A stretch of 52,692 nucleotides of DNA, taken from Bacteroidales bacterium UBA1722 (lineage in GTDB: Bacteria > Bacteroidota > Bacteroidia > Bacteroidales > UBA932). The stretch is from positions 1 to 52,692 of the forward strand of contig DCIQ01000194.1 of NCBI GenBank assembly GCA_002317435.1, in the 5' to 3' direction. Positions 18,436 to 34,466 of the stretch are shown one piece after another; the first letter of the stretch is position 1, and the number at the start of each line of letters is the position of its first letter. Made by a program: the position numbers and the translations under genes. Under the pieces are notes generated by a model. It made no database searches. It had not been told where the DNA came from and was given only the letters and a program-made list of their open reading frames with translations.

Positions 18436-18444
18436 TGGGTGTCA

Positions 18445-18578
18445 CCATACCGTCTTTTCGTTTCTGGCATGCTTGTTGATGATGGTATGTCAGCATAGAT
18501 AATATGATGGTTAGTGGTGAATAAAAGATTTTGGTTGATAGAGAAGAGTGACTGATGTCCGTCAGTCACTCTTTTTTT
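18445..18578 (+). repeat. Left copy of a ~135-nt direct repeat flanking the NRPS island
   Basis: Hand alignment of 18445.. against 34182.. gives 84 of the first 95 nt identical (~88%). Both copies start ccataccgtcttttcgtttctggca and both end in a hairpin plus T-run. Confidence 0.8.
18546..18578 (+). terminator. Intrinsic terminator after the GH2 gene
   Basis: Perfect 10-bp stem gagtgactga/tcagtcactc, 6-nt loop, then TTTTTTT. Confidence 0.75.
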
Positions 18579-18699: not shown

Positions 18700-19002
18700 A
18701 TGACTGACATTATTGAAAATACTCCCGAGAGAATCGTTATCGTCCTCCGGGGTGAACTGGATACACTTGCCGCCAAGTCTTTTGCGGCGGAAATGGAGCC
18801 TGTGATGGCTGATGCAGGGAAGCGGATAATTCTGGATTTTACCGGGTTGGAGTATATCTCGAGTGCCGGCATGCGTACCATCCTCCTGCTGCAGAAAACC
18901 GCCGGTGCCAAGGGTGGGAAGGTGAGTATCAAAGGCATGAGCGAGGATATCCGTCAGATATTCCGCATGACAGGGTTTGACCAAATAATAGAAATATTAT
19001 GA
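18700..19002 (+). CDS. STAS-domain protein (SpoIIAA/RsbV-like anti-sigma-factor antagonist)
   Basis: 100 aa with the typical STAS layout (IVIVLRGELD, ILDFTGLEYISSAGMRTILLL, FRMTGF). The conserved phosphorylatable Ser position is retained (S54 in ISSAG). The stop overlaps the NRPS start (ATGA). Confidence 0.85.
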   Translation: MTDIIENTPERIVIVLRGELDTLAAKSFAAEMEPVMADAGKRIILDFTGLEYISSAGMRTILLLQKTAGAKGGKVSIKGMSEDIRQIFRMTGFDQIIEIL

Positions 19003-22000
19003 TTTATCCGCTTTCACAGACACAGATGGGCATTTACGTATCGAGCATAAATGCCGGTTCGGAAGGAAAATACAATAACAATTTTCTGTATGGAATCGAC
19101 GATGATGTCGATACGGGCAGGCTTGCGGCTGCCATAGACAGGGTCGTGGCGGCTCATCCGGCACTGTTCGCGCGTCTGACCGTGGATGATGACGGAGATA
19201 TGGCGTTCGAGGAGCACAACGATGAAACGTTCCATACGCTGGAGATGAATGTCGGCAGTCTCGACGAGGTGCGTGACCGCATAGGGGCGGACTTCGATCT
19301 GATGAATGACCGGCTGTTCCGTGTCGAAATTTATCATACCGGGCAGGGCACGTTCCTCTACATAGACATACACCACATCATATCTGACGGCATGACTTTC
19401 GCCCATCTCATAGAAGAGATCGGAGAAGTGTATGACGGCGGGGAACCGATGAAGGAGAAAAAGACCATTTTCGACCTTAACCTTGAGGAACAGGCAGTCC
19501 GTAAAAGTGAAGCGTACATGGAGGCGAAGCAGTGGTACGAAGAGCATTTCGCCGCCGCATCCGGAGTGGATTCGCTCCCCCGGAGTGACATGCAGGTGAA
19601 CGGGCCGTCAGCCGTCGGGACATCGGGTATCGGCATATTGGAACGCACTCTGAATATCGACCGTGACGCTCTGGGCAAATTGTGCGGTGAGGCCGGTGTC
19701 CGTGAAAGCGTATTCTACACTGCGGCATTCGCATTCCTGCTGAGCAAGTTCGCGGGGAACGGCGAAGTTCTGTTCTCCACCATCTATCACGGACGTCCGA
19801 ACAGGGAAGACAGGGATGCGTACGGCATGATGGTGAAGACTATGCCCGTTTATCTGGATATGGAGTCCCGGCCTGCCGTGGCGGACCTGCTGCGCTGTAT
19901 GTCGCAGCAGATCAGGGAGAGCCGCAGGCACACCTGCTATTCCTTCGCGGAAATATGCTCGGACCTGGATCTGAAGTCGGACATCCTCTTCTCCTATCAG
20001 GACACCCTCAACACCTTCCCGCTGAAACTTGACGGCAAATTGCAGCAGGATATGCATATCCCGATGCCGCGTCCGGGAATGGTCTTCAATGTAATGCTCC
20101 TGCAGACTGCCGACGGGCCGGTCATCGAGTTCAAGTACCGGAAGGACATGTTCTCCCGGGCCCTCATTCAGGATATGACCCTGAGTTATGAGAAGATACT
20201 CTCGGAATTTCTTCTCCACGAGAAACTCTGTGAAATCTCCATCGTCAGCCCGGAGCAGCAGAAGATTCTCGACACTTTCCACAATACTGCAGCCGCGGAC
20301 GTCCCCTACAAGCGATTCTACGAACCCATAGAGCATTTCGCGGAGGTCGCTCCCGATGCCGCCGCCATCGTCGCCTGTGACAGGACATTATCATACGGGG
20401 AACTGAACGGGGAAGCAAACCGGGTCGCCCATTCCCTGATGTCCCGCGGAGTAAAGCACGGTGACCGTGTCATTCTCCTCCTTCCCCGCACCAGCCGGGT
20501 CATCTGCTGCATGTTCGGTGTAAGCAAGGCGGGTGCCGCGTACATTCCTTGTGATCCCGCTTATCCGGCCGAGCGCATCAACCTCATCCTGGAGGACAGC
20601 GGGGCGAAGTATATCATAACCACGGATGATCATCTGGCAGAGCATGGCGACAAGGCCATCCTCGTCGATGATTTGTTTGACGGCGGTCTTCCGACAGTCA
20701 ACCCGCGGCTCCCGTCCATAACCCCCGATGATTTGGTGTATCTGATTTACACCTCGGGCTCGACCGGCCGGCCGAAGGGCGTGATGCTGCGCCACGAGGC
20801 GATATGCAACTACCTTTATGATCATCCTGCGAACCGCCATATCCATGCGCTCATGACTGAAGGGGTGAAGTCATACCTGTGTCTCACCACCCTCTCCTTC
20901 GACATGTCTCTGAAGGAGTTCGGCGTGGCTCTTCACAACGGCCTCACCTGTGTGCTTGCGAATGAGGAGGAGACCGAGAACCCCCTGCTCCTCGCCGATC
21001 TGATCAGGCGTACGGGAGTGGAGGCGCTCAATGCCACGCCTTCACGTCTGATGGGTTATATGGAGATACCCGAATTCGAGGGGGCCGTGAATAACTGCAA
21101 GGTCATCATGAGCGGCGGAGAAAAGTACTCAGCCACACTTTTGGACAAGTTGCACGGCATCCCCGGACTCCGCATCTTCAACACCTACGGCCCTACGGAA
21201 ATCACGGTCAGCAGCAATGCCGCCGAACTCACCGACACATCGTTCATCACCATCGGACGCCCGCTGCTCAACTACCACGAATGGGTGGTGGATGCCTGCG
21301 GCAATGAACTCCCCATAGGCGTGACCGGGGAACTCTACATCGGTGGCATCGGTGTTGCCGAAGGCTATAATAACCTTCCCGAGAAGACGGCGGACGCATT
21401 TGTCGAATACAGGGGAATGCGTACATACAAGTCCGGGGACTATGCCCGCTGGACACGTGACGGCCATATAGAGGTACTCGGCCGCCGGGACGGACAAATC
21501 AAACTTCACGGTCTTCGCATCGAAATAGGAGAGATCGAGTCCTGTATCAATAAATATCCGGGCATCAGGCAGTGTGTGGTCAAGGTCTGCCATATCAACA
21601 ATGACGATTTTCTCGCGGCGTACTTTACGGCCGGCGAACAGATTGATACCGATAAGCTGAAAGCTGAAATCAGCAATACGCTGACTCACTATATGGTGCC
21701 AAGTGCATTCATGCAGCTGGAATCTTTCCCTCTGACCCCGAACGGGAAAACGGATGTGAAGAACCTGCCGGTGCCCGAAATGATGCCGGCGGTGAATGTG
21801 GAGAAGTCATCAACGGGGCCGGTGGCGCTGAACGATCTGGAAAAGCAGCTGTATGACATCGTTGCGGGTGCATTGAAACTCCCTCTCATCGGGGATTCGG
21901 AAGACGCGGTTCCGGCTTTCGGCGTCACTGACGCACTCTCGTCCGCGGGTCTGAGTTCGCTTTCGGCCATTAAGGTCGCAACGCTGATTTACAAACGTTT

Positions 22001-25000
22001 CGGCATACAGTTGAAATCACGGGAGCTGATGGACGGCGCGACTCTGTTCAGTATCGAGAACCTGATTCTGAAGCGTCTTCTCTCCGCTTCGGACAGTGAA
22101 AACCACGATGCGGAAGAAACCGCTCCTCATCCCGAAAAGAAGAGGTCGGAAACGGAGTTGCCGCTTTCCTTCACCCAGCAGGGTGTCTATACCGAGTGTC
22201 AGGCCAACCCAGATGCGGTGCAATACAATATTCCCGAGTGCATAAAAGTGCCGGACGGTATTACTCCCGAACAGCTGGAGACAGCCGTAAGAAAGGTGGT
22301 GGCCGCGCACCCTTATCTCTTCTGTCACTTTGTCGAAGGTGACAACGGCGATATCGTACAGAAACCGTCGGACAGCACCAGCTTCCGGATACCGCACATC
22401 CAGTGTTCCGCTGAAGGGTTTGAACAGGAGAAGAAAAACTTCGTCCGTCCGTTCCATCTGGCGGAAGGGCCGCTTTTCCGTTTCGAAACGGTGACGGTCG
22501 GCGGCACGCTCCATTTGTTGACGGACATGCATCACCTCATAAGCGACGGCGCTTCGGTGGATCTGTTCATGCATCAACTCTGCCGGGCACTTGACGGCGG
22601 GGAGATAGAGGAGGAAAAATATTCATACTATGACTTCGTCGCCGACCAGCATATCAGTCGGGAGACGGAGGATTTCTTCGCAGACCGCATGGCCAGAGTG
22701 GAGAATTCTTCGCAGCTTATTCCGGATGTATTCGAACAGAATCTGCCGCACACCGAAGGGACGGTTTCCGCACCTTCCGACTTCGCCCCCGTGCAGGCTT
22801 GGGCATCAGAAAATGGCGTGACTCCCGCTGCCGTCTATCTGTCGGCGGCATACTTGTGTGTCTCACGATATCTTTGCGAAGACAACGTAAACCTCTGCAC
22901 CATTTCCAATGGCCGCAGCAACCTCCAGGTGGCGGACACGATGGGTATGTTTGTGAACACTCTCGTGCTTCAGTCATACGTCGACCATCAGGTCTCCTGT
23001 CTTGATTTCGTCAGAACATGTGCCCGGGACTTCGCGCTGACCATCGAAAATGAGAATTATCCGTTCGCGAAGATAGCGGCGAAGTATGGATACCAGCCCA
23101 ATATCGCATTCGCCTATCAGGTCGGCGTGCTCGGCGATTACAGGACGAAGGCGGGAGAACTGGAAATCCGGAGTCTCAGCCTCGAAGTTGCGAAGATCGG
23201 GGTGAACATAACGGTCCGTGGCGAGGATGCGACCGGCTATCGCATAAAGGTAGATTATGATGAAGCTCTGTATTCCCGATACATGATGCAGCAGCTGGCT
23301 GTCAGTATGGAAAATGCCGTTCGGGGAATAATCAGTCGGGAGAAGCTTGGTGATGTCAGCATCACTGATGAGGAACAGTGGAGTGTTCTGGATAAATTCA
23401 ATGCACCGCTCGACTTCGGTTATGACCGGGATGATACGGTCGTCACGAAGTTCAAACGTGTCGCCCGGCAGTATCCGGACCAAAAGGCTTTGGTCTATAT
23501 GGACAAGTCTTACACTTACGGTGAATTGGATAAGTTTACGGATCGTCTTGCGGTAAAGATTCGTGAGCGGATGCTTCCGTATATTCAGGAGGTTGAACGT
23601 CTGCAGGTGGAGCAGGACGGAACAAAACTCACCGATGTGGTGGTCTCCATCCTCATTCACCGTAACGAATGGATGCTCTTGGCTTCACTTGCGGTTTTGA
23701 AGGCAGGATGCGGATATCAGCCGCTGGATCCGAGTTATCCTCAGGACCGTCTGAATTTCATGGCAAAGGATGCCGGCGCCCGTCTTCTCATCGTGGATGA
23801 GGACTTGCGGGATCTTCTCAACGAGTATGACGGGGACGTGCTCCTGACCGGGGACATCGCTGACCTTATAGCCGACACCCCGGAAGGAAGCGTCGATTTC
23901 AGCCGCAAGAACGGTCTTGTCACGCTGCTCTACACTTCCGGTTCCACGGGTGTGCCTAAAGGGTGTATGCTTGAGCACAGAAACCTCGTCGCCTTCGGTC
24001 ATGCCACGCGTACGACCCTGGACATCTCGACCGACAGCCGCATCGCCGCATACGCATCGTTCGGCTTCGATGTGAATATGATGGACATGTACTGCTCCAT
24101 CATGAATGGAGGTACCATGTACATCATCCCGGAAGATATGCGCATGAATCTCGATGTCCTGCATGACTACATTGAAGACGAAGGTATCACTCAGATATTC
24201 ATGACCACGCAGGTGGGCGTGCAGTATCTGGAAAACTATCCCGAGTCCAAGTCTCTCCGCCGCCTTGCGATGGGGGGCGAAAAACTGCGGGCCGTGGATC
24301 CAGGCAAGCTTTCATATAAGATATATAATGGTTATGGACCCAGTGAGATGACCTGCGGTGTCAGCATGTTCACCATCGAAAACTGGGAGCCGAACATTCC
24401 CATCGGACGCCCTATGCCCACACTGCAGGGATATGTCGTCGACAAGACGGGGCACCGTCTCCCGGTGGGCGCCGCCGGTGAACTGTGGATAACAGGTCCT
24501 CAGGTGGCCCGCGGATACTTGAACCGTGCGGACAAGACAGCCGAGGCTTTCTCCGGGAATCCGTTCATCGACCACGCCAGGACTGCGGTCGATTCGGAGC
24601 GTCAGCTCTGCTCGCGCATCTATCACAGCGGCGACATCGTGCGCTACCGCGAAAACGGAGACATAGAGTTCGTCGGACGCAAGGACGGTCAGGTGAAGGT
24701 TCGCGGTTTCCGTATCGAGCTGAAGGAGGTCGAAACTGTCATCCGTGAATTTCAGGGTGTGAAGGACGTTACCGTTCAGGCATACGACTATGAGGACGGC
24801 GGCAAGTATATCGCGGCATTCGTAGTCAGTGACACTGCGGTCGATACCGATGCGCTGAACGCTTTCATCAAGAGTCAGAAGCCTCCCTATATGGTGCCTG
24901 CCGTCACCATGCAGATCGAGAAGATCCCTCTGAACGTAAACCAGAAGGTGGACAAGAAGGCACTTCCCAAACCGGAAGCCAAAAAGGCCGAATATGTCGC

Positions 25001-26492
25001 CCCGAAGGGGAAGACGGAGGAAGACTTCTGTCAGATATTCTCAGAGGTGACGGGTGTCGAAAAAGTGAGTGCCGAGGATGATTTCTTCGAGATCGGCGGC
25101 AGTTCCATTCTGGCTCTGAAGGTCGTTCTTGCCGCAGGAAAGAAGGGATACGGTATCGTGTATAATAACGTGTTCTCCTACACGACTCCAAAGGCGATGG
25201 CGCAGTTCGTGACAGGAAAAAGCGACGATGAAGACTCCGAATCCCCGACATGTCCCGAAACTCCCGGGACCGTCAGAGAAGTGGATGAAGACGGCTATGA
25301 CTATAAGGATGTTAATGCTTTGCTGCGCGGAAATACTATGGAGGCCTTCATGAACGGAGGAAGACAGCCTCTCGGTGATGTCCTTCTGACAGGCGGGACA
25401 GGCTTCCTCGGTGTACATGTACTGCATGATCTCATTGAAAATTATGACAACAGGATTTATTGTCTGGTCCGCGGCGGTAAGGATAAGAGTGCGCAGGCAC
25501 GTCTTGAAGAGTATCTGACCTTCTATTTCGGCAAGTCATACGCCGAATTGACAGGCGGTCGCATTGTGGTCATCGAGGGTGATGCGACAGACCCGGCGAC
25601 CTTTGACAAGGTCATGGAAACGATGGGCGACCATTCCGGAGACTGCACCTGTATAAACTGCGCCGCCTGTGTGAAGCACTTCGCCAAGGGTAACGAGATC
25701 GAGCAGATAAACGTCGGCTCGGTACGCAACATAGTGGATTGGTGTATCCGGACCGGTAACAGACTTGTTCATGTCTCTACGGAGAGCGTGTTCGGCAAGA
25801 ATGATTTCTCGACGTTACCACGCGACTTCCGATATGACGAGCACATACTCTACGGAGGTCAGCAGTTCAGGTACAACCAGTACACGATGTCCAAGTTCGA
25901 GGCTGAAGTGCTCATCTATGAGGCGATTCTTCAGCATGGACTGAATGCCAAGGTTATGCGTGTCGGAAATCTTGCACCGAGATTTGAGGATGGAGGTTTC
26001 CAGATAAATGCCGAAAGCAACAATATGATGAACCTGTTCAAGGCATATATTGCACTGGGCAAGATTCCGTTCAGCGCTATGGATGCCAAACTCGAGTTCT
26101 CGCCGATAAATTATGTCGCACATGCGATATTGCTGCTTGCCGAAACTCCCCGGGAGTGTGTCTGCTTTATGCCGAGCAACCACCACGTCTCACTTCAGGG
26201 CGATATCGTGACGGATATCGCCGGGACACTTCGAAAACCTCTGGAACTGGTGGAGGCCGATGTCTTCGCGAAGGCGGTGCAGGAAGCTCTCGCCTCACCG
26301 GAACTGGTTGACAGCATGCGCCCGTTTATGGCTTATCAGAGCGGCGAATCGAACAGCAGGATGAGAAGTGCAGGTCCCGGAGATTTCTCGAATGCCTTCA
26401 CCATTCAGGTCCTTTACCGTCTCGGCTTCCGTTGGCCGGTGACAGGTACCGGATATGTCGCCCGATTTACAAAGAATCTCTATGGCCTTTGA
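18999..26492 (+). CDS. Non-ribosomal peptide synthetase, two modules plus terminal reductase (C-A-T-C-A-T-R)
   Basis: C1 has HHIISDG (nt ~19371). A1 has YTSGSTGRPKG, NTYGPTE, GELYIGG, YKSGD, GRRDGQIKLHGLRIE, PNGKTD. T1 has AGLSSLSAIK. C2 has MHHLISDG (nt ~22530). A2 has YTSGSTGVPKG, NGYGPSE, GELWITG, YHSGD, GRKDGQVKVRGFRIE. T2 has FFEIGGSSILALK. R has LLTGGTGFLG (nt ~25383) and YTMSK. Confidence 0.95.
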   Translation: MIYPLSQTQMGIYVSSINAGSEGKYNNNFLYGIDDDVDTGRLAAAIDRVVAAHPALFARLTVDDDGDMAFEEHNDETFHTLEMNVGSLDEVRDRIGADFDLMNDRLFRVEIYHTGQGTFLYIDIHHIISDGMTFAHLIEEIGEVYDGGEPMKEKKTIFDLNLEEQAVRKSEAYMEAKQWYEEHFAAASGVDSLPRSDMQVNGPSAVGTSGIGILERTLNIDRDALGKLCGEAGVRESVFYTAAFAFLLSKFAGNGEVLFSTIYHGRPNREDRDAYGMMVKTMPVYLDMESRPAVADLLRCMSQQIRESRRHTCYSFAEICSDLDLKSDILFSYQDTLNTFPLKLDGKLQQDMHIPMPRPGMVFNVMLLQTADGPVIEFKYRKDMFSRALIQDMTLSYEKILSEFLLHEKLCEISIVSPEQQKILDTFHNTAAADVPYKRFYEPIEHFAEVAPDAAAIVACDRTLSYGELNGEANRVAHSLMSRGVKHGDRVILLLPRTSRVICCMFGVSKAGAAYIPCDPAYPAERINLILEDSGAKYIITTDDHLAEHGDKAILVDDLFDGGLPTVNPRLPSITPDDLVYLIYTSGSTGRPKGVMLRHEAICNYLYDHPANRHIHALMTEGVKSYLCLTTLSFDMSLKEFGVALHNGLTCVLANEEETENPLLLADLIRRTGVEALNATPSRLMGYMEIPEFEGAVNNCKVIMSGGEKYSATLLDKLHGIPGLRIFNTYGPTEITVSSNAAELTDTSFITIGRPLLNYHEWVVDACGNELPIGVTGELYIGGIGVAEGYNNLPEKTADAFVEYRGMRTYKSGDYARWTRDGHIEVLGRRDGQIKLHGLRIEIGEIESCINKYPGIRQCVVKVCHINNDDFLAAYFTAGEQIDTDKLKAEISNTLTHYMVPSAFMQLESFPLTPNGKTDVKNLPVPEMMPAVNVEKSSTGPVALNDLEKQLYDIVAGALKLPLIGDSEDAVPAFGVTDALSSAGLSSLSAIKVATLIYKRFGIQLKSRELMDGATLFSIENLILKRLLSASDSENHDAEETAPHPEKKRSETELPLSFTQQGVYTECQANPDAVQYNIPECIKVPDGITPEQLETAVRKVVAAHPYLFCHFVEGDNGDIVQKPSDSTSFRIPHIQCSAEGFEQEKKNFVRPFHLAEGPLFRFETVTVGGTLHLLTDMHHLISDGASVDLFMHQLCRALDGGEIEEEKYSYYDFVADQHISRETEDFFADRMARVENSSQLIPDVFEQNLPHTEGTVSAPSDFAPVQAWASENGVTPAAVYLSAAYLCVSRYLCEDNVNLCTISNGRSNLQVADTMGMFVNTLVLQSYVDHQVSCLDFVRTCARDFALTIENENYPFAKIAAKYGYQPNIAFAYQVGVLGDYRTKAGELEIRSLSLEVAKIGVNITVRGEDATGYRIKVDYDEALYSRYMMQQLAVSMENAVRGIISREKLGDVSITDEEQWSVLDKFNAPLDFGYDRDDTVVTKFKRVARQYPDQKALVYMDKSYTYGELDKFTDRLAVKIRERMLPYIQEVERLQVEQDGTKLTDVVVSILIHRNEWMLLASLAVLKAGCGYQPLDPSYPQDRLNFMAKDAGARLLIVDEDLRDLLNEYDGDVLLTGDIADLIADTPEGSVDFSRKNGLVTLLYTSGSTGVPKGCMLEHRNLVAFGHATRTTLDISTDSRIAAYASFGFDVNMMDMYCSIMNGGTMYIIPEDMRMNLDVLHDYIEDEGITQIFMTTQVGVQYLENYPESKSLRRLAMGGEKLRAVDPGKLSYKIYNGYGPSEMTCGVSMFTIENWEPNIPIGRPMPTLQGYVVDKTGHRLPVGAAGELWITGPQVARGYLNRADKTAEAFSGNPFIDHARTAVDSERQLCSRIYHSGDIVRYRENGDIEFVGRKDGQVKVRGFRIELKEVETVIREFQGVKDVTVQAYDYEDGGKYIAAFVVSDTAVDTDALNAFIKSQKPPYMVPAVTMQIEKIPLNVNQKVDKKALPKPEAKKAEYVAPKGKTEEDFCQIFSEVTGVEKVSAEDDFFEIGGSSILALKVVLAAGKKGYGIVYNNVFSYTTPKAMAQFVTGKSDDEDSESPTCPETPGTVREVDEDGYDYKDVNALLRGNTMEAFMNGGRQPLGDVLLTGGTGFLGVHVLHDLIENYDNRIYCLVRGGKDKSAQARLEEYLTFYFGKSYAELTGGRIVVIEGDATDPATFDKVMETMGDHSGDCTCINCAACVKHFAKGNEIEQINVGSVRNIVDWCIRTGNRLVHVSTESVFGKNDFSTLPRDFRYDEHILYGGQQFRYNQYTMSKFEAEVLIYEAILQHGLNAKVMRVGNLAPRFEDGGFQINAESNNMMNLFKAYIALGKIPFSAMDAKLEFSPINYVAHAILLLAETPRECVCFMPSNHHVSLQGDIVTDIAGTLRKPLELVEADVFAKAVQEALASPELVDSMRPFMAYQSGESNSRMRSAGPGDFSNAFTIQVLYRLGFRWPVTGTGYVARFTKNLYGL

Positions 26493-29376
26493 TTTTTCAA
26501 ACAAAATCGTCGGGGTTCTGGTCGAACGGACGCACGACATAGTGGATGCCGCTGAAGCGATAATCCGCGGTGGCGGCGTTTTCATGCCGATCGACAAAAG
26601 CTATCCTCAGGACCGTGTGGACTACATGATGCAGGATGCCGGGGCCGCTCTGCTTCTGACGACTGACATTCCGAAAGGAAACGGGTGTCTGGACTGGGGA
26701 GGCAAGGATATGGATGATGCGGCGATGATATTATATACTTCCGGAACTTCGGGACGGCCCAAGGGGGTGGTGCATACGCGGCGTTCCATCGAGGCGATGA
26801 TCGCTGCCACCCTGCAAGTCGCTCCCGTCAGGCCGGAGAGCCATGTCGCCATCGTCGCCGGTTTCACATTCATCGCATCTCAATTCCTGATTTTTACGGC
26901 ATTGAAACAAGGAGCCGCGATACATGTCGTCGATGATGCGACGAGACAGGATTTTGATTTGTTGTACGATTACATCAGGGAGCACAGCATAGACATAGTG
27001 TTCCTGCCTCCCGCCATAGCGACCGTCATGGCGGAGGAGTATGATATGCGGGGGATAACGATTCTGTCCGCGGGTGACAAGTTGCGCAACTTCAAATCCA
27101 AATATCCCTGTGTGATTTGCAATATGTACGGCAGCACGGAGGGTGTCATCGTCACTGCGGGGAAGATAACTGGAGACGAACCGAACATCTCCATCGGCAA
27201 ACCGTTGGATGGAATCGACGTGCGCATCGTTGACGAACAGTTGAACGATGTCCCCGAAGGTGAAGTCGGTGAACTGATATACAGCGGAGCCGTTCAGGCC
27301 AAAGAATACCTGAATCTTCCCGAACAGACCGCAGGCAAGTGGTTCACGGGTGAAGACGGCCGGCGCTGGTTCAGGATGGGCGACCGGGTGAACCGCCGGG
27401 ACGACGGTAATCTGTATTATGTGGGCCGTACCGACAATATGGTAAAGATACGCGGATTCCGCGTGGAGACGGGCGAGGTCGAACGACAGATTTCACGTGT
27501 GGTGCCATCCGTCGAGGTGGCCGTCGTAATGCGCACGGTGCATGGTATTGACCATCTGGTGTGTTTCTATGAGAACGACAGTGAGATTCAGACTGATGTG
27601 GTGAAGGAAGAAATCGCGAAATCGCTTGCCGAGTACATGATCCCCGATATATGGGTGCGTCTGGATCGCCTGCCCCGTAACGCCAACGGAAAGGTCGTGC
27701 GTAGGGAACTGCCTGTTCCGGCCTCGGGGGCGGACAAGCTCAGCATCGTATTCAACGAGGTCGAGATGCGTGTCGTGGAGGCTGCCAAACTTATTGTCGG
27801 AGACACCATATCGCTCGATGACAATTTCTTCGAATGCGGGGGAACATCCCTTGGCGCCATCAAACTGGCGACCCTGCTCAAGACCATGGGCATCCATATA
27901 ACCGGTTCGCAGATAATGCAGCTCAGGACACTGCGTTTGGTAGCCAAGGAGGCGAAGGCTGATTATGAACGCCTTTGGACCTCTGAACAGTACCGTGAAA
28001 TATGCGACAGTTTCGCGGCGAGAGGCGAAAAAATCCGGAAGGTCCTGCCTCTTTCTACGGAACAGGAAGACATACTCATCCGCTATCTGATGCATCCTGA
28101 TGCCACCGCTTACCGGAATGTATTTCTGCTCAAGCTGGACAGCCGTGTCGATAAGGATATTCTGCGCAGTGTCATAAATGAAGTCTCCGACAGGTATGAA
28201 GTTCTCCGTTCTGCGATCGTCATTCACCACAAGGCGCCCTTTCAGCAGATAATCACAGACAGGTGTGTGCCCCTGGATATTTATGATGATATCGCTGACA
28301 CGGACATAAGTTATGTGAAGAGCCTTTACAGGCGATATATGCACACTCCTTATGATCCGGAAATATCGTCCCTGATGCGTTTCGGTTACGTTCCTCTCTC
28401 CGACGGCACTTCGTTTCTGCTGCTCCTTGTAAATAATGTCAGCGTGTCGATGAGCATAGCCCGCCGCACGATTCATGATGTTATGGACCGACTTTCCGGA
28501 CACTTCCCGGATGACCTGTCGATAACCGGGTGGCGTGATCTGGCGGCACTTGCATTGAGCAGTGAAAGTCAGAATGTGACGGGGGGTGCTGACGTCGAAA
28601 TAAAAAAGCCTGTTGACAACGGATTGATAAGGGTCTATTCTCCGTTGAAGGAGGGTAAACCCCCGGTGACGTTTGTCCATACCGGAAATACCGGGAGTGA
28701 TGCGTACTATCGTCTTGCCGACAGGATAGGAGAGAATTGTGCGTTTTCTGTCATTGAACCATATAATCTGTTCCATCAGGATGACATACGGCATGGTATC
28801 GGGAATATCGCACGGAAATATGTGGAAATCCTCCGTGATTATCAGCCGGAGGGTCCTTACATACTTGGGGGATGGTGCTATGGAGGTGTTGTCGCACACG
28901 AGATGGCCTGCCAGCTCCAAGCGATGGGGGAGGAGGTCCGCCATCTGATAATGTTTGACTCCCACGCGCTGACGGACGACAATCTGACATCTATGGCGAG
29001 GGATATGCAGGGAACCGTCGACCGTGAATATTTCGAGACTTGCCCGCTCTTCGAAGATCTTCGCGGACAGGGACTTCTGGAGGCGATGATCAATAACTGC
29101 GCACAGGTCTGCCATGACCTCCTGCATCACACTCCTTCCATGTTCCATGGAGCCACGACATATTTCAAACCCCTCCGTACACCTGTGGCAGCTACGGGCA
29201 ACGCTCTTGAATATTGGAAGAGGATGATGGAATTCGATGCCGGAAATTACGAGAATTTCTGTGATCGGAATCAGTTGCGTATTATCAATACCCCTCATGA
29301 GCACGATCTTATGATGGACGATGAATCGCTGGCCGTCACGGTACCGGCCATCAACGGAATACTTGGTCATCATTAA
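26482..29376 (+). CDS. Non-ribosomal peptide synthetase, A-T-(degenerate C fragment)-TE
   Basis: The A domain starts near core A2 (no LTYxEL region). It has ILYTSGTSGRPKG, NMYGSTE, FRMGD, GRTDNMVKIRGFRVE, NANGKV. T has FFECGGTSLGAIK. A ~190-aa C-domain N-lobe follows, with VNNVSVS in place of HHxxxDG. The alpha/beta-hydrolase TE has GGWCYGG. The ATG at 26482 overlaps the upstream stop (ATGGCCTTTGA); an alternative ATG lies at 26455. Confidence 0.9.
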   Translation: MAFDFSNKIVGVLVERTHDIVDAAEAIIRGGGVFMPIDKSYPQDRVDYMMQDAGAALLLTTDIPKGNGCLDWGGKDMDDAAMILYTSGTSGRPKGVVHTRRSIEAMIAATLQVAPVRPESHVAIVAGFTFIASQFLIFTALKQGAAIHVVDDATRQDFDLLYDYIREHSIDIVFLPPAIATVMAEEYDMRGITILSAGDKLRNFKSKYPCVICNMYGSTEGVIVTAGKITGDEPNISIGKPLDGIDVRIVDEQLNDVPEGEVGELIYSGAVQAKEYLNLPEQTAGKWFTGEDGRRWFRMGDRVNRRDDGNLYYVGRTDNMVKIRGFRVETGEVERQISRVVPSVEVAVVMRTVHGIDHLVCFYENDSEIQTDVVKEEIAKSLAEYMIPDIWVRLDRLPRNANGKVVRRELPVPASGADKLSIVFNEVEMRVVEAAKLIVGDTISLDDNFFECGGTSLGAIKLATLLKTMGIHITGSQIMQLRTLRLVAKEAKADYERLWTSEQYREICDSFAARGEKIRKVLPLSTEQEDILIRYLMHPDATAYRNVFLLKLDSRVDKDILRSVINEVSDRYEVLRSAIVIHHKAPFQQIITDRCVPLDIYDDIADTDISYVKSLYRRYMHTPYDPEISSLMRFGYVPLSDGTSFLLLLVNNVSVSMSIARRTIHDVMDRLSGHFPDDLSITGWRDLAALALSSESQNVTGGADVEIKKPVDNGLIRVYSPLKEGKPPVTFVHTGNTGSDAYYRLADRIGENCAFSVIEPYNLFHQDDIRHGIGNIARKYVEILRDYQPEGPYILGGWCYGGVVAHEMACQLQAMGEEVRHLIMFDSHALTDDNLTSMARDMQGTVDREYFETCPLFEDLRGQGLLEAMINNCAQVCHDLLHHTPSMFHGATTYFKPLRTPVAATGNALEYWKRMMEFDAGNYENFCDRNQLRIINTPHEHDLMMDDESLAVTVPAINGILGHH

Positions 29377-31114
29377 TGGAAATCAGAAGGTGAAACGGAA
29401 AGTTTTTTTGATCAACAAGGCATTCAACAAATACCTGTGGGCTTCCATTCTGGGAGTGGCAGCCTCGCAGATCGCGAATATCGTCGATGCGTCGCTGGTG
29501 GGAAACATCATCGGGGCCGACGGGCTGGCGGCTGTCGTAATCAGCAAGCCGGTTCTTCAGGCCATTTTCGCCATCTCCTGTTTTTATGCCGTGAGCTGCA
29601 GCATGATCGCCGGTATGGCTTTGGGTAATGGCGAAAAGGCCGCCGCCGACTCACAGTTCTCATTCTCCATGGCGGCAAGTCTGGTATTGGGAATAGTGAT
29701 TTCCGCCGGGGGGCTGATTTTCATCGAACCCCTGATGGACCTGTTCTGCAGATCACAGGAGCTTCGTCCCATGGCCAAATCATTTATGACGGTGACCATA
29801 CTGTCGGCCCTTCCCCAGCTGTTCATGTACACACTGCACCGGTTTGTCACTACGGACGGCTCACCGAAACTGATTTCCAAGGCTGTAATCGTGGGAAACC
29901 TGGTCAACGTCGTTCTGGATGTCGTCTTTATGAAATATCTGAACATGGGCATAGCCGGCGCCGCATGGGCTACGTTCATCATGTATATAGTGTGTTGTGT
30001 CATGGTGATTCCGCATTTCCGTAAGAAGGATACGCTTCGTCTGGCATTCGGACGATGTCGGAAACTTATCTCCGTCAGACAGATACTGACCTTGGGAACA
30101 CCGATTTTCCTCTCTACCGTGCTCCTTTCCGTGCAGTACACGTGCTACAATGGCATCGCCGTCACATATCTGGGCAAATCCGGGCTCATCGCCCTGGCGG
30201 TTTGTCTGCAGCTGTTCAGTTTCTCCATGATTATCCTCACCGGAACTTTGCAAGCCATTCAGCCTGTAGGCGCCATACTCAAAGGTATCAATGACTCGAA
30301 GGGGATAATCATGCTTTTGGGAAAAGCTTATAAGTTTCTGGCGGTCTGTCTGGCGGTCTATTCACTGCTGATTGTTATCTTCCCTGTGGAGATATCCGGT
30401 TTCCTGGGGGTGAAAGATGGAAGTGCGCTCCCGACCGTCATGGCGGCTTTGCCTGCTTTCTCTCTGAATATCGTGATGCAGGCGCTGCTCTACAACCTGA
30501 TGCCTGTCTATCAGTTCTACAATCATCACCGCATGGCACTGTTTCTGTCCGTAGGTCAGACATTGCTGCCGATTGCCGGTTTCTGGGCACTGGCGCATTT
30601 TCAGACGTTCAACCCGTGGTATGGTTTTTTTCTCGGTCAGTCAGTGACAGCCATTGTCCTTTTGGTGTCATCACTGTTCATCAGCAGGAAGGAAAATTCG
30701 ATTCCTGTGTTCCTGGTTCCCCGCGGAAATGGATTCCCGTCGCTGGAGATGTCGTTCGGCTACTCCGAAGAAGCGATGCATAAGGCATTTGACGAGATGA
30801 GCGGGTGGCTTGGGCAGCAGAATCTTTCGAAGAGCATAATCTTCAAGGTCCGTATTCTGGCAGAGGAACTGATGTCCAATATAATCCGTCACAGCGGACA
30901 GAAAGACAAGAATGCGTTCGCCGACGTGCGTCTGTTTATGCAGGAGGATGCAGTCATATTCGCCCTCACGGATGACGGCAAACCGTTCAATCCCATTGAA
31001 AACAAGGACAAGGGGTATGGCCTGATGATAGCCAACGGAGTCGCAAGTGACATTTCATACAAATATCAATTCGGCCAAAATATGACCAATGTAATCATAA
31101 ATACAGAAGCGTGA
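29321..31114 (+). CDS. MATE family efflux transporter fused to a C-terminal RsbW/SpoIIAB-like GHKL (HATPase_c_2-type) domain
   Basis: ~440 aa with 12 hydrophobic segments and MATE-like repeats (IVDASLVGNIIGADGLAAV). The C-terminal ~130 aa carries N-box AEELMSNIIRH, LTDDGKPFNP and KGYGLMIANG. The start is uncertain: the ATG at 29321 overlaps the upstream gene by 56 nt, while the in-frame GTG at 29390 (VKRKVFLINK) lies 14 nt after the upstream stop and may be the true start. Confidence 0.8.
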   Translation: MNRWPSRYRPSTEYLVIINGNQKVKRKVFLINKAFNKYLWASILGVAASQIANIVDASLVGNIIGADGLAAVVISKPVLQAIFAISCFYAVSCSMIAGMALGNGEKAAADSQFSFSMAASLVLGIVISAGGLIFIEPLMDLFCRSQELRPMAKSFMTVTILSALPQLFMYTLHRFVTTDGSPKLISKAVIVGNLVNVVLDVVFMKYLNMGIAGAAWATFIMYIVCCVMVIPHFRKKDTLRLAFGRCRKLISVRQILTLGTPIFLSTVLLSVQYTCYNGIAVTYLGKSGLIALAVCLQLFSFSMIILTGTLQAIQPVGAILKGINDSKGIIMLLGKAYKFLAVCLAVYSLLIVIFPVEISGFLGVKDGSALPTVMAALPAFSLNIVMQALLYNLMPVYQFYNHHRMALFLSVGQTLLPIAGFWALAHFQTFNPWYGFFLGQSVTAIVLLVSSLFISRKENSIPVFLVPRGNGFPSLEMSFGYSEEAMHKAFDEMSGWLGQQNLSKSIIFKVRILAEELMSNIIRHSGQKDKNAFADVRLFMQEDAVIFALTDDGKPFNPIENKDKGYGLMIANGVASDISYKYQFGQNMTNVIINTEA

Positions 31115-32901
31115 GACGAATAGCAATAACACTCATCCTCTCCGTCATCGTGTTTGCGGCCACAATTCTGGTCTCAATCATGTACATATCCAGAAAGAGC
31201 CTCGAAACAGCGGATTATTTCAACAATCTCGCTCTGGACAATTTTCAGGATGAACTGAATGATGAAATTTTCCTGACCAGGCAGTCCGCTTTCAGTTTCC
31301 TTACCGGAATTCCTTCCGTATATGTAGGGAAGGACAGTGCCAGCATCATCATCGATGAAAAGGAACTGTCCGAGTTCAAGGATGCGATCCATGACGTTCT
31401 GATACAGTTCATGAGAGTCAATAAGTATTATCGGAATACGATGTTCATCATCGACAGGGATATATGCCGCAAATACTTCCCATGTGAAGATACTGCTTAC
31501 ATCGGGCATTGTACGAAGGGATTTGTCCCTGCCGTCCTGCAGGGTGACAATGCATTGTATGACCTGTCCGACCAGTATGACTTTATGGGTTCCGCCCGAT
31601 ATCAACAGTTGAAAAGAGAAAGAAAAATTCTTTGGACCGCACCTCAACCTGTCTCTCCGGAGGAAATGAGATTGTTGATACTCCAAGTGCCGATGACTTT
31701 GAGCAACGGACAGTTCGCAGGTGCATTCACCGTGTCGCTGGATATCGGGACGGTAAATGAAAAATTGAAGAATTACCTGCCGTTCGGTGAGGAGTATTCC
31801 GCCATATTCCTTGTTGACGAAAACGACAATATATTTTCCTCCTGTCCGGAATGGATTATGGAGCCGGACAGCCAGGAAGAAATTCGTAATTCCACCGATC
31901 TGCTGCAGAGACACGACGAGGGCGCCGAGCATAATATCATTAAAATCGGTGAGGATGAATACTATGTATATCAGCGTGATGACCTTTCATTGCCCTGGAG
32001 AGTCTTCACGGCCAATAACTCGAAAGCCATTTATCACGACGCGAAGCATGTGGTCAACGCCATGATTCTCTCCTCAGTCACGGGAATGCTTATGATGCTT
32101 GTCTGCTGCGTCGTCATTTTTCGTCAGACACGAAAGAATCTGCGCAAGAAAGCGGCCATAGAGGAGGAGCTGCGTATGGCTGCGATGGTGCAGACCTCGA
32201 TGCTGAAGCCGTCCACCTGTACCTTCTCACATAATTCCTCACCGATCATCCTGAATGCCTTTGTGCAGCCGGCCAAAAAGGCGGGAGGAGATCTATATGA
32301 TTATATCGAGAAAGATGGAAAACTTATCTTCTGTATCGGTGACGTCTCCGGAAAGGGGATGCCGGCGGCACTGTTCATGACCCAGGTGGTTTCACTCTTC
32401 CGCAATGCGGTGCGCCGTACTTCGGAACCGTCTGAAATAGTATGTCAGATAAATGACGTGCTTTCAGACAATTCCGAGATGACTTTCTGTACCTTCTTTG
32501 CAGGTGTGCTGTGCGGGGATGAAATAACGTTCTGCAATGCAGGCCACAATCCCCCCGTGTTCATTTCTTCCCGCTCCTCATATCTGAAAGTGCGTCCCAA
32601 TATCGCGATCGGGCTGATGGAAGGCTATCCATACCGGTCGGAGACCATTTCCTTCCGTCCGGGGGACAAATTGGTGCTCTATACCGATGGAGTCACTGAA
32701 GCAAAGGACAGAAACCATAGACTGTATGGTGAGGAGAGACTTCTCAAGGTGCTTGAATCCATTTCGCGAAGTTCGGGTGCCGAAACCGGTTCATGGATCA
32801 ACACGGCCATCAGAAAATCCATGGAACAGTTCACACGACACGCCGAGCAGAGTGACGACATCACGATAATGAGTATCGAAAATTCACATATTATGTCCTG
32901 A
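31111..32901 (+). CDS. Transmembrane PP2C/SpoIIE-family serine phosphatase with ~300-aa extracytoplasmic sensor domain (RsbU-like)
   Basis: TM1 is IAITLILSVIVFAATILVSIMYI, followed by a ~300-aa loop and TM2 VVNAMILSSVTGMLMMLVCCVVIF. The SpoIIE domain has GGDLYDY, GDVSGKGMPAALFM, LYTDGVTEA, SDDITIM. The GTG start overlaps the MATE stop (GTGA). Confidence 0.85.
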   Translation: MRRIAITLILSVIVFAATILVSIMYISRKSLETADYFNNLALDNFQDELNDEIFLTRQSAFSFLTGIPSVYVGKDSASIIIDEKELSEFKDAIHDVLIQFMRVNKYYRNTMFIIDRDICRKYFPCEDTAYIGHCTKGFVPAVLQGDNALYDLSDQYDFMGSARYQQLKRERKILWTAPQPVSPEEMRLLILQVPMTLSNGQFAGAFTVSLDIGTVNEKLKNYLPFGEEYSAIFLVDENDNIFSSCPEWIMEPDSQEEIRNSTDLLQRHDEGAEHNIIKIGEDEYYVYQRDDLSLPWRVFTANNSKAIYHDAKHVVNAMILSSVTGMLMMLVCCVVIFRQTRKNLRKKAAIEEELRMAAMVQTSMLKPSTCTFSHNSSPIILNAFVQPAKKAGGDLYDYIEKDGKLIFCIGDVSGKGMPAALFMTQVVSLFRNAVRRTSEPSEIVCQINDVLSDNSEMTFCTFFAGVLCGDEITFCNAGHNPPVFISSRSSYLKVRPNIAIGLMEGYPYRSETISFRPGDKLVLYTDGVTEAKDRNHRLYGEERLLKVLESISRSSGAETGSWINTAIRKSMEQFTRHAEQSDDITIMSIENSHIMS

Positions 32902-32960
32902 TCATCTCCCGTTTTTATCGGGCGGCAATATTTTTCAATCATTACTAATTTCTATTTTTC

Positions 32961-34112
32961 ATGAAAACTTTTTTGCATGTACTTCTTCTTGGTTCAGCTG
33001 TGTTTTCGGTATCATGTCGGCAAGGCATTTCAGACAAGATACTGATTGAAGGAACCGTTATTAATATCGACCAGTATGGAGGACTGGAGCCGTCTTTCAC
33101 ACCGGATGCCCTGGAAAAGGCCGGAGTGGCTTATGGAGATTTGCTGACGCTTTCCATAGGAGATGATATAGTGGTGTCCGCACCTTATGTTGATGCCTAT
33201 ACGGAGGCAGGCAGCATGTCGCCTTGTCTCTGCAATTATAACCGGGCCGGCAAGATGGTGACAGCGGCCATGTCAAACGGTAGTTTTGCCAACCACGTAG
33301 GAGGTAAGGTTGGTGACAGTATTGTCGTAAGAATGCAGAAGAAGGAAGGATACCTCCGGGAATACGAACTTCTGCAAGGAACCTACACATACGATCGTTC
33401 TGAATATTCCGATGATGAAGTTTTTGCCAATTTCCGTGAGTTGAAAGGCACTGGCCTTAAACCGGGCGTATTGTTCAGGAGCACCAGCCCGATCAATTTC
33501 AAGAACAATAAAATCAGGTATACATATTCATCCGAACTATGTCGCGTCAATGGCATTAAAACTATCATCGATATAGCCGATTCGGATGCCAAGGTCGCGG
33601 AGTATCTGTCCGCGGCTGAGAGCGAAGGAAGCTATATGCTGGAAATTCAGAGCAAGGGAAATATAGTAGGTCTCGGCTCAAATGCAGACTACATCGATAC
33701 CACATTCATGCGCAAGGCAGCCCGTGCGTTCCGTGAAATGATTTCCAAACCCGGGCCGTATCTGATTCACTGCAACGAAGGAAAGGACCGTACAGGTTTC
33801 TACTGCCTGCTTCTCGAAGCTTTGTGCGGCGCGAGTGTCGAAGAGATAGAATTGGATTATATGTTGACATTCGAAAACCTCTATCATCAGAAAAAAGGCA
33901 CAGAACAATACGAACTCACCTGGAAAAAGAACGGATTCAGGATGCTCTATCAGCTGGCTAATCCACAAGTTTGGGATCATGTGATTTTGATTGACTGGGA
34001 CAAAGTCTCGATTGACGGTGCGGATTTGGCCGAGGCGGCGGAGAATTACATCCTGATGATCGGTCTCTCGTCTGCGGAGATCGACGCACTGAAAAATATA
34101 ATTTCCGAATAA
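32961..34112 (+). CDS. Lipoprotein with CX5R tyrosine-phosphatase-family domain (Y_phosphatase3-like) and an N-terminal beta-barrel-like domain
   Basis: Lipobox VFSVSC. Active-site motif HCNEGKDRTG (CX5R). The N-terminal ~110 aa (GTVINIDQYGG...GDSIVVRM) resembles the C-terminal domain of SAM hydroxide adenosyltransferase/DUF62 proteins; that assignment is tentative. Confidence 0.7.
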   Translation: MKTFLHVLLLGSAVFSVSCRQGISDKILIEGTVINIDQYGGLEPSFTPDALEKAGVAYGDLLTLSIGDDIVVSAPYVDAYTEAGSMSPCLCNYNRAGKMVTAAMSNGSFANHVGGKVGDSIVVRMQKKEGYLREYELLQGTYTYDRSEYSDDEVFANFRELKGTGLKPGVLFRSTSPINFKNNKIRYTYSSELCRVNGIKTIIDIADSDAKVAEYLSAAESEGSYMLEIQSKGNIVGLGSNADYIDTTFMRKAARAFREMISKPGPYLIHCNEGKDRTGFYCLLLEALCGASVEEIELDYMLTFENLYHQKKGTEQYELTWKKNGFRMLYQLANPQVWDHVILIDWDKVSIDGADLAEAAENYILMIGLSSAEIDALKNIISE

Positions 34113-34181: not shown

Positions 34182-34317
34182 CCATACCGTCTTTTCGTTT
34201 CTGGCACACTTGTTGACAATGGTATGTCAGCATAGATGATGTGATGGTTGATGGTGAATAAATGGTTTTGGTTAATGGAAAAAAGGTGACTGATAAAACT
34301 TATCGGTCACCTTTTTT
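34182..34317 (+). repeat. Right copy of the ~135-nt direct repeat flanking the NRPS island
   Basis: See the left copy at 18445..18578. Same orientation and same internal 6-bp complement (catacc/ggtatg). Different terminator hairpin sequence at the 3' end. Confidence 0.8.
34284..34317 (+). terminator. Intrinsic terminator closing the island
   Basis: Stem aggtgactgat/atcggtcacct (one G-T wobble), 7-nt loop, then TTTTTT. Confidence 0.7.
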
Positions 34318-34438
34318 CTGTATATGTATTATTTCCAGACGATTTTTGTCCTCCTGTCTCATAAATGTAATCAGTGCATATTTGGCCAAATGCAATGTCG
34401 ATCGGTGCCTTTTGGCTGATTATCTTAATTTTTATCCT

Positions 34439-34446
34439 TATATTTG
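34439..34446 (+). promoter_or_regulatory. Bacteroides-type -7 box (TAtaTTTG) for the AAA ATPase gene
   Basis: TATATTTG lies 21 nt before the ATG at 34467. Confidence 0.4.
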
Positions 34447-34466
34447 CCCATCTGACAAGGACAAAC

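Follow-up and report, generated by a model that had tools for sequence, protein, structure and literature searches.

A MATE transporter fused to an RsbW-type kinase domain in nonribosomal peptide synthetase operons of gut Bacteroidales, a candidate sigma-less partner switch

Introduction

Partner switching is known from textbooks as a form of sigma factor control, and few other outputs have been described. Partner switches with non-sigma outputs include SiaABCD of Pseudomonas aeruginosa, SypE/SypA of Vibrio and BtrUVW of Bordetella, where the outputs are a diguanylate cyclase, biofilm functions or functions of type III secretion. MATE efflux pumps matter in drug resistance and in metabolite export, and regulation at the level of the protein is not generally ascribed to them. 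Here we describe a gene that brings the two together, located in a stretch of 52,692 nucleotides (nt) from Bacteroidales bacterium UBA1722 (contig DCIQ01000194.1 of assembly GCA_002317435.1, positions 1 to 52,692 of the forward strand; the whole stretch is referred to as the window). The gene encodes a MATE transporter joined in frame to a C-terminal kinase domain of the RsbW/SpoIIAB type, and we refer to its product as the MATE-kinase. It lies in a nonribosomal peptide synthetase (NRPS) operon, along with genes for a STAS-domain protein and a membrane-bound PP2C phosphatase.

In its parts, the module in the window is like the Bacillus systems RsbW/RsbV/RsbU and SpoIIAB/SpoIIAA/SpoIIE. Shared features are the kinase fold, the serine of the STAS protein, a phosphatase of the PP2C/SpoIIE type and the encoding of the components together. 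Unlike in Bacillus, the kinase forms the C-terminal part of a MATE protein with 12 transmembrane (TM) helices, no sigma factor gene is linked, and the setting is an NRPS operon in Bacteroidales. The STAS domain owes its name to a domain shared by anion transporters and anti-sigma antagonists. In Anabaena (HenR/All4160, described in a preprint), a PP2C phosphatase and a kinase control a STAS domain fused to a glycosyltransferase, a biosynthetic enzyme.

Domain structure of the MATE-kinase

The open reading frame (ORF) at 29321..31114 on the + strand is uninterrupted and encodes 597 amino acids (aa). Residues of the MATE-kinase are counted from GTG 29390, which gives a protein of 574 aa, except where the 597-aa ORF is named. 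Coordinates of all features are given in Table 1.

The Pfam MatE profile matches at aa 42-202 and in a second stretch of the 597-aa ORF (E-value 5.8e-21; 75.3 bits against a cut-off of 24.9). Several MATE models from NCBIfam, TIGR00797 among them, match across aa 8-424; the alignment to TIGR00797 itself covers aa 20-365 and scores 109 bits, which is under the subfamily cut-off of 147. Twelve hydrophobic segments were identified by hydropathy, and the AlphaFold2 model (115 homologues; mean predicted local distance difference test score, pLDDT, 83.7; predicted TM-score, pTM, 0.81) shows 12 long helices followed by a C-terminal domain. In a Foldseek comparison of the model with the Protein Data Bank (PDB), the first 440 residues matched PfMATE, VcmN, NorM, DinF and ClbM, with target-normalised TM-scores of up to 0.87 (0.85 to the PfMATE entries 4mlb, 3vvo and 6hfb, and 0.83-0.87 across PfMATE, VcmN and Aq_128). 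Among the 115 homologues, D33 in TM1 is invariant and D177 in TM5 is nearly so. The N-lobe acidic residues used for H+/Na+ coupling in PfMATE are Asp41 and Asp184.

Lysine and arginine are concentrated at the N-terminus (MKRKVFLINK; five in 15 aa) and in the loop between TM6 and TM7 (eight), and therefore the segment following TM12 is placed in the cytoplasm. That segment begins with a short linker, which is modelled with pLDDT values of 77-86. Two of its residues, L442 and P444, are invariant in the 115 close homologues and are kept in 54 and 52, respectively, of 66 divergent members of the family.

The C-terminal domain is matched by Pfam HATPase_c_2 (PF13581), which represents the RsbW/SpoIIAB branch of the GHKL ATPases. 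The match covers aa 484-589 of the 597-aa ORF (E-value 2.2e-10; 41.1 bits; gathering cut-off, 27.4). Searches of the PDB with the sequence of this domain returned weak matches (VraS, 7e-4; RsbW, 0.026; SpoIIAB, ~0.7), so fold comparison was needed to place it. The model has the order of secondary structure elements b-a-a-b-b-a-b-b at aa 451-571. The first Foldseek match outside of the MOP superfamily is RsbW of B. subtilis (6m37_C; TM-score 0.82, root-mean-square deviation 2.7 A, 122 columns), and SpoIIAB follows (1th8_A, TM-score 0.79; 1til_E, TM-score 0.74). By profile and by fold alike, the protein counts as a true member of the MATE family and of the HATPase_c_2 family.

Residues of the N-box, G1 box and G2 box are strongly conserved. 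E493, N497, D528, G530, F533 and G544 are invariant in the 115 homologues, and E492, H501, D529, N534, P535, G542 and L545 are invariant or nearly so. Also invariant is D512. In the divergent fused members (n = 66, reaching down to 21% identity), E493 is found in all 66, P535 in 65, N497 and D528 in 64 each, G544 in 61 and G530 in 59. The persistence of E493, N497, D528, G530 and G544 down to this level of identity argues that nucleotide binding is under selection. A further motif close to the C-terminus, Y.Y..GQN, is specific to this family (Y557 in 63 of 66 and N564 in 65 of 66).

An earlier note on this DNA, prepared from the sequence alone, had read the gene as a MATE-type membrane domain joined to a GHKL-type kinase domain that faces the cytoplasm. 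This reading holds in each of its parts. The MATE domain is confirmed by the Pfam profile and by the Foldseek fold matches, and the GHKL fold by a profile score above cut-off and by a full-length structure model that matches RsbW and SpoIIAB. The proposed N-box (EE...N...H), G1 and G2 motifs are present and conserved in homologues, and the charge pattern along the hydropathy profile agrees with the model in locating the kinase domain in the cytoplasm.

Conservation and spread of the fusion

The 120 best homologues in a collection of 5.8 billion proteins range from 93% to 46% identity to the window protein. Both Pfam domains are present in 116 of them, and all are 547-613 aa long save for one entry of 458 aa. 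In contigs of one genome per species, 39 loci were found, with flanks of up to 10 kb. All 39 are from metagenome-assembled genomes (MAGs) of Bacteroidales, many of them recovered from horse faeces, and the taxa include Prevotellaceae/Bacteroidaceae, Prevotella, Alloprevotella, Cryptobacteroides, Alistipes equi, Colimorpha, Coprenecus and others. The MATE and kinase domains share one reading frame in 38 of these 39 loci.

More distant relatives were found using the kinase domain alone as the query against 1.84 billion representatives clustered at 50% identity, which gave 422 matches. Among the best 150 of these, 65 of the 66 proteins with at least 500 aa are MATE fusions. The divergent fusions are 21-42% identical to the window protein over their full length, and the fusion is thus retained in at least 65 clusters at 50% identity. 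One divergent cluster (574 aa) contains a cultured isolate, Parabacteroides sp. APC149_11_2_Y6, in which the protein (WP_459190277.1) is annotated as 'MATE family efflux transporter'. The third match of the kinase-domain search, P0122 (7219 aa), was discarded as a giant repeat protein that is matched spuriously: its 45 matches are confined to the last ~37 residues (Y.GQFGQTITVTV, with the motif Y.YQFGQ..T).

The earlier note had named a sequencing, assembly or frameshift error at the junction as a way in which a false fusion of MATE and kinase genes might arise. Two observations would fit such an error, namely that free-standing versions of the kinase (124 aa) exist and that the MATE gene of one relative (L028, described below) stops just ahead of where the kinase domain would begin. 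Against it stands the occurrence of the fusion in the close homologues, loci and divergent cluster representatives counted above (116/120, 38/39 and 65). The junction between MATE and kinase domains is colinear across hundreds of homologues, and the same fusion, with its conserved linker, recurs across independent assemblies, samples and taxa. An artefact at the junction is excluded on these grounds, and we consider its probability negligible.

The same alignments settle the start codon, which had been left open between ATG 29321 and GTG 29390. The closest homologue (P0001; 93% identity, 574 aa) has the N-terminus VKRKVFLINRAF, located at the position of GTG 29390, and other homologues open with MQKRN..LINKAF. 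Homologues measure 560-580 aa, and the 23-aa extension that would be encoded from ATG 29321 has no counterpart among them. Thus, ATG 29321 was rejected as the start and is probably unused, given the lengths and N-termini of homologues, and translation probably begins at GTG 29390, 13 nt past the stop codon (TAA) of the upstream gene.

Public annotations of these proteins are 'ATP-binding protein', 'MATE family efflux transporter' and 'polysaccharide biosynthesis C-terminal domain-containing protein'. The NCBIfam matches are to generic MATE models and all fall under the family cut-offs, and therefore no curated family covers the MATE-kinase. In the full-text literature searched, we found no description of the MatE-HATPase_c_2 architecture, nothing relevant to partner switching in NRPS clusters of Bacteroidetes, and no case of a MATE protein with a domain for post-translational regulation. 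Papers matching both 'MATE' and 'HATPase_c_2' were judged coincidental. The architecture had been called unusual, which is true of the literature searched and is not true of gut metagenomes, where it is common. This variant of partner switching is undescribed in that literature, yet widespread.

The operon and its conserved partners

Five genes lie close together on the + strand, and the MATE-kinase gene is the fourth of them. In order, they encode the STAS protein, NRPS1, NRPS2, the MATE-kinase and a Cache-TM-PP2C protein. The mechanically called ORF of the STAS gene begins at TTG 18685, and ATG 18700 agrees with the N-termini of homologues. The protein matches Pfam STAS (E-value 1.5e-17), scores above cut-off for NCBIfam ant_ant_sig and has a weak match to MlaB. 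Ser55, in the sequence EYISSAGMR, is the predicted phospho-acceptor. It is invariant in 10 orthologues, and in an alignment to SpoIIAA, RsbV and TM1442 it falls on the phospho-serine position (DS*SG / DS*AG).

The two synthetases contain condensation (C), adenylation (A), thiolation (T), reductase (R) and thioesterase (TE) domains. The C-A-T-C-A-T-R order of NRPS1 presumably resembles that of gut-bacterial clusters for dipeptide aldehydes and pyrazinones (Guo et al., Cell 2017). The terminal reductase is identified as NAD_binding_4 (aa 2130-2377). NRPS2 has an odd layout, in which the Condensation match is limited to aa 528-657 and to the first ~135 positions of the profile. Its listed ATG start, which is uncertain, places the first 38 nt of the gene within NRPS1 (26455-26492). 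The substrate of the pump is presumably the small molecule made by these synthetases.

The phosphatase protein has TM1 at aa 6-24, TM2 at aa 319-337 and a cytoplasmic SpoIIE/PP2C domain at aa 402-589. The ~295 aa between its two hydrophobic segments are predicted to form a periplasmic Cache-like domain, for which the dCache_1 match is weak (E-value 1.3e-6, below cut-off). The match to Pfam SpoIIE is strong (E-value 4.6e-45), and there is a weak NCBIfam match to SiaA. The motifs GGDLYDY, GDVSGKG, NAGH, YTDG.TE and QSDDIT are conserved in nine orthologues. The kinase, the STAS protein and the phosphatase therefore all look competent for a phosphorylation cycle. The STAS gene overlaps that of NRPS1 (ATGA) and the MATE-kinase gene overlaps that of the phosphatase (GTGA, the phosphatase start being GTG), and both junctions fit co-translation.

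Families shared with the window among the 39 related loci are NRPS (34/39), STAS (12/39) and PP2C (8/39); STAS, PP2C or both adjoin the fusion in 12/39. For STAS and PP2C these counts are minima, as flanks of at most 10 kb often end inside the 7.5-kb NRPS gene. At least four gene orders occur, for example STAS-NRPS-MATEkin-...-PP2C, PP2C-STAS-MATEkin-NRPS, NRPS-...-MATEkin-STAS-PP2C and MATEkin-STAS-NRPS (MATEkin, MATE-kinase). The order is shuffled and the linkage is retained, which indicates functional coupling.

Relatives at 21-25% identity to the window protein retain similar partners in other settings, and the loci L040, L045 and L046 among them are low in GC. In L040, genes for a GH3-type amide synthetase, a STAS protein and a MATE-kinase are followed by one for a 5TMR_LYT-SpoIIE-HATPase_c_2 protein. 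In L045, a dCache-HAMP-SpoIIE-HATPase_c_2 gene is divergent from a STAS-MATEkin pair, with no biosynthetic genes nearby. L046 has a MATE-kinase followed at a distance by STAS, HATPase_c_2 and SpoIIE genes, and L052 has SpoIIE, HAD and MATE-kinase genes (a PP2C protein, with no STAS noted). In L044, an NRPS-like gene, an acetyltransferase, a glycosyltransferase and a MATE-kinase are followed by an ATP-grasp-STAS-APH fusion, with no PP2C noted, and in L042 and L051 adenylating enzymes adjoin the MATE-kinase. Judged from these gene sets, the core cassette is STAS plus MATE-kinase plus a membrane-sensor PP2C, recruited in most cases to clusters for amide-linked small molecules.

The fusion in L044 (11786-14323) is an 845-aa protein with an ATP-grasp domain like that of D-Ala-D-Ala ligase, and a 391-aa STAS-APH protein is encoded at 890-2065 of the same locus. 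These STAS-enzyme fusions suggest STAS-mediated control of the ligase. Beside the MATE-kinase locus L040 (GCA_964434005.1, 35% GC), positions 16646-20684 hold CbiA, Oxidored_nitro, CfbE_C and CbiX genes, a set reminiscent of tetrapyrrole biosynthesis of the coenzyme F430 type.

Two further families recur near the fusion and have no member in the window cluster: a 420-aa protein without Pfam match (17/39 loci, by profile hidden Markov model search) and a beta-lactamase-fold protein (12/39 loci). In L017, for example, both lie directly upstream of the MATE-kinase (420-aa protein at 8726-9988; beta-lactamase-fold protein at 7632-8714). Where loci have the order NRPS1-NRPS2-beta-lactamase-fold-420aa-MATEkin, the 10-kb flanks reach no further than the inside of NRPS1.

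The kinase domain could also be a membrane-tethered anti-sigma factor, which would sequester an unlinked sigma factor or other regulator until released by the STAS protein, with the MATE domain serving mainly as an anchor. Such a role is the classical one for HATPase_c_2 proteins, and the nearest structural matches are indeed RsbW and SpoIIAB. Nevertheless, none of the families conserved across the 40 loci compared is a sigma factor or DNA-binding family, and neither type adjoins the window operon or is conserved in the distant loci inspected. To our knowledge, sigma factors of the sigma-B or sigma-F type are not known from Bacteroidales. A 12-TM transporter with conserved MATE residues would also be a costly anchor. 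We consider this explanation improbable, and since no sigma factor gene is linked, the domain should be called an RsbW-type kinase and not an anti-sigma factor.

Proposed mechanism and alternatives

We propose, with about even confidence, that the operon encodes a sigma-less, three-part partner switch in which the kinase is fused to an exporter and export of the NRPS product is gated by a signal from outside. The 574-aa MATE-kinase would be both the inner-membrane exporter and the membrane-embedded kinase component. The other two components would be the STAS protein, encoded first in the operon, and the Cache-TM-PP2C protein, encoded just after the MATE-kinase, and together they would bracket the NRPS assembly line. 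The kinase domain would bind the unphosphorylated STAS protein and phosphorylate it on Ser55 using ATP, upon which STAS-P would dissociate. When the periplasm-facing Cache domain senses an external ligand, the PP2C domain would dephosphorylate STAS-P. Occupancy of the kinase domain by STAS would then be passed via the short, rigid linker to TM12 and change the activity of the pump. Most likely, the kinase domain would be docked in an inhibitory state that STAS relieves, and export would follow the external signal.

The analysis shows the domains, their topology, the conserved fusion, the conserved catalytic and phospho-acceptor residues of all three proteins and the recurrent linkage of the genes. 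From these we infer that phosphorylation takes place and that it is the pump that is regulated, as well as in which sense it is regulated and what it exports. The pump is the probable output because a fusion usually joins a regulator to its target, and because no other output is conserved. In L045, where the module occurs without a biosynthetic gene, the pump is the only candidate output. The earlier note had described the protein as a transporter with a built-in partner-switch receiver and had pointed to a STAS protein and a PP2C domain nearby as its partners. Both partners exist in the operon, with a conserved serine and intact catalytic motifs, and both recur beside the fusion gene across many genomes, in varied gene orders. 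The kinase, STAS and PP2C parts of that description thus stand, and the word receiver goes a step beyond them, as the signal might run in either direction.

Several observations weigh against the proposed switch. The ATP lid of the kinase domain is short, with a spacing of 11 residues between G1 and G2 that is specific to this family. The corresponding spacing in SpoIIAB is ~23 residues, and the lid of the MATE-kinase is thus about half as long. Positions 6-123 of the Pfam profile are covered by 106 residues, ~12 fewer than the profile span. Also, the first glycine of G2 (G542) is kept in just 23 of the 66 divergent members, and G2 shrinks to xxGL in distant members. Kinase activity might therefore be weak. 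Taken further, the short lid, the missing residues, the loss of G542 and the weak sequence similarity to solved kinases would fit a catalytically dead docking domain, with the fold kept and STAS (or another protein) bound without being phosphorylated. Against this, the Mg/ATP-binding residues Asn497, Glu493, Asp528, Gly530 and Gly544 each persist in 59-66 of the 66 members, and the STAS serine and an intact PP2C are co-conserved, which is sensible only if phosphorylation occurs. We regard a dead domain as highly improbable.

Other observations of this kind come from natural variants and incomplete gene sets. In the close relatives L047-L049 the kinase is a free protein of 124 aa that is 50-56% identical to the window domain. 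It is encoded between an NRPS that ends in a reductase and a Cache/PP2C gene (the PP2C protein is 38% identical to that of the window), and no MATE gene intervenes. Fusion to a pump is thus not required for the switch to exist beside this type of NRPS. L038 (Candidatus Physcousia equi) has a free kinase paralogue alongside the fused one, and this is followed by a gene for a 650-aa protein without Pfam match and then by a PP2C gene. L043 (Parabacteroides-type) has the order NRPS-MATEkin-PPTase (phosphopantetheinyl transferase), with no STAS or PP2C gene within 8-10 kb, and many loci of the form NRPS1-NRPS2-...-MATEkin likewise have neither in the available flanks. A variant of a different type occurs in L028, from an uncultured Prevotella MAG, where the MATE protein (9959-11317) ends with '...LLLIPKN*' right past the linker motif and has no kinase domain. 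A STAS gene is retained at the head of the NRPS operon in this genome, and the gene after that for the MATE protein is unrelated.

The free kinases beside the NRPS favour a reading in which the MATE domain acts as a transport-state reporter. Here, the conformation or substrate loading of the transporter would modulate the kinase, and thus the state of STAS, which would act on the NRPS or another biosynthetic enzyme; synthesis would be matched to export capacity, and the Cache-PP2C protein would be a second input. Kinase and PP2C stay with the NRPS in L047-L049 even where there is no MATE fusion, and the STAS gene in the window is translationally coupled to NRPS1, not to the pump. The ATP-grasp-STAS-APH fusion adjoining the MATE-kinase in L044 suggests that STAS acts on a biosynthetic enzyme, for which the STAS-glycosyltransferase fusion of Anabaena, under PP2C and kinase control, is a precedent. 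The conserved, rigid linker would serve conformational coupling either way. However, L045 has a STAS protein, a MATE-kinase and a sensor-PP2C with no biosynthetic gene nearby, the phosphatases already have a dedicated sensory input in their Cache, HAMP or 5TMR_LYT domains, and no surface for such an interaction is known on the NRPS. We consider this explanation, the chief rival of our proposal, unlikely, although far from negligible.

Whether the pump is the output, as we propose, or reports on export to synthesis, the fusion suggests that protein phosphorylation switches the export of metabolites or their export-coupled synthesis. More tentatively, and with less than even confidence, the MATE-kinases might constitute a new class of signal-gated secondary transporters, in which a serine-phosphorylation partner switch opens or closes the exporter directly. 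This would be the first case of a partner switch acting on a transporter, and of a MATE pump with a post-translational switch dedicated to it. If true, an extracellular cue would set the time at which NRPS-derived and other amide-linked metabolites are released by many Bacteroidales and other anaerobes of the gut. A phospho-switch located physically on the pump provides a testable model of post-translational efflux control, or of feedback from export to biosynthesis. The fusion would also mark a large, uncharacterised family of NRPS clusters in Bacteroidales of the herbivore and human gut as signal-responsive, and the Cache-domain phosphatase may offer a handle on the inducing ligand, and so on the activation of otherwise silent clusters.

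Gene neighbourhood

The 5' boundary of the operon is marked by a terminator-like hairpin that was read from the sequence and is not among the output of the terminator scan. Downstream of the phosphatase gene, at 32961-34112 (+), is a gene for a 383-aa protein with a signal- or lipoprotein-like N-terminus, a weakly SAM_HAT_C-like N-domain and a Y_phosphatase3 domain. A weak hairpin (32909-32925) separates it from the PP2C gene. The protein was not found in related loci, and it is therefore probably outside of the module. After the strong terminator that follows, positions 34374-35873 (+) encode an ATPase_2/AAA protein of 499 aa that includes a MarR-like winged-helix segment and is unrelated to the cluster in other loci. 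A 626-aa ORF antisense to NRPS2 (27493-29373, -) is most likely a compositional by-product of the sense gene.

Upstream of the operon (2889-18435) is a typical polysaccharide-utilisation locus of Bacteroidota. It includes a hybrid two-component system (HTCS) regulator on the minus strand, DUF6057 and PD40-repeat proteins and a SusC/SusD pair. Also present is a 1208-aa GH2 beta-galactosidase with an N-terminal ricin-type lectin domain.

Table 1. Features of the MATE-kinase operon in the window and of free kinase genes in related loci (positions of the latter refer to the locus named).
Feature	Position	Strand	Details
Terminator-like hairpin and T-run	18544..18577	+	Closes GH2 gene; operon 5' boundary; read from sequence
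STAS anti-sigma-antagonist-type protein	18700..19002	+	100 aa from ATG 18700
NRPS1	18999..26492	+	C-A-T-C-A-T-R; Pfam 2x Condensation, 2x AMP-binding, 2x PP-binding
NRPS2	26455..29376	+	A-T-(partial C)-TE; Pfam AMP-binding, PP-binding, Condensation, Thioesterase
MATE-kinase fusion gene	29390..31114	+	574 aa from GTG 29390
MATE (MOP superfamily) transmembrane domain	29390..30700	+	aa 1-437; 12 TM helices; Pfam, hydropathy, AlphaFold2, Foldseek
Linker after TM12, '..IPVFLVPRGNG..'	30701..30739	+	Short, conserved; L442 and P444
RsbW/SpoIIAB-type GHKL serine-kinase domain (HATPase_c_2)	30740..31111	+	aa 451-574; ~125 aa; cytoplasmic
N-box, EELMSNIIRH	30863..30892	+	aa 492-501; E492, E493, N497, H501
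G1 box, DDGKPFNP	30971..30994	+	aa 528-535
G2 box, GYGL	31013..31024	+	aa 542-545
Sensor phosphatase (PP2C)	31111..32901	+	596 aa; dCache-like domain between TM1 and TM2, then SpoIIE/PP2C
Strong terminator-like hairpin	34275..34321	+	20 pairs; past Y_phosphatase3 gene; outermost possible operon 3' end
Free 124-aa kinases	L047:3163-3537, L048:1458-1832, L049:52-426		Natural 'fission' form of same cluster type
Free HATPase_c_2 gene	L038:11807-12199		130 aa; Pfam E-value 3e-14; directly after MATE-kinase

Comparison with known systems

SiaABCD, SypE/SypA, BtrUVW and HenR/All4160 are like the proposed switch in having a non-sigma output, and in none of them is the kinase fused to a transporter. 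The Anabaena case and the weak SiaA similarity of the window phosphatase, which resembles phosphatases of the SiaA type, serve as precedents for such an output. For the signal input, the counterpart is RsbU of Chlamydia, in which an extracytoplasmic ligand-binding domain is linked through a TM segment to a cytoplasmic PP2C domain, as in the window phosphatase. The Chlamydia RsbW kinase is soluble, unlike the membrane-fused kinase of the window.

The location of a MATE gene within a secondary-metabolite operon is shared with ClbM (which acts on precolibactin), MbnM, GntT, SolL and WgkD. The window MATE domain has structural likeness to ClbM (4z3n), and there are sub-threshold NCBIfam matches to MbnM, GntT, SolL and WgkD. 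These transporters are ~430-460 aa long and have no extra domain, whereas the window protein adds a kinase.

STAS domains that contact or modulate a membrane transporter are known from the SulP/SLC26-STAS proteins and from MlaB in the MlaFEDB complex. The MATE-kinase would be the mirror image of SLC26-STAS, in that the transporter carries the kinase partner and the STAS protein is free. It differs from these systems in that the transporter is of the MATE family, and not SLC26 or ABC, and in the phosphorylation cycle that its partners imply. This mirror-image relation offers an evolutionary angle on the link between STAS domains and transport.

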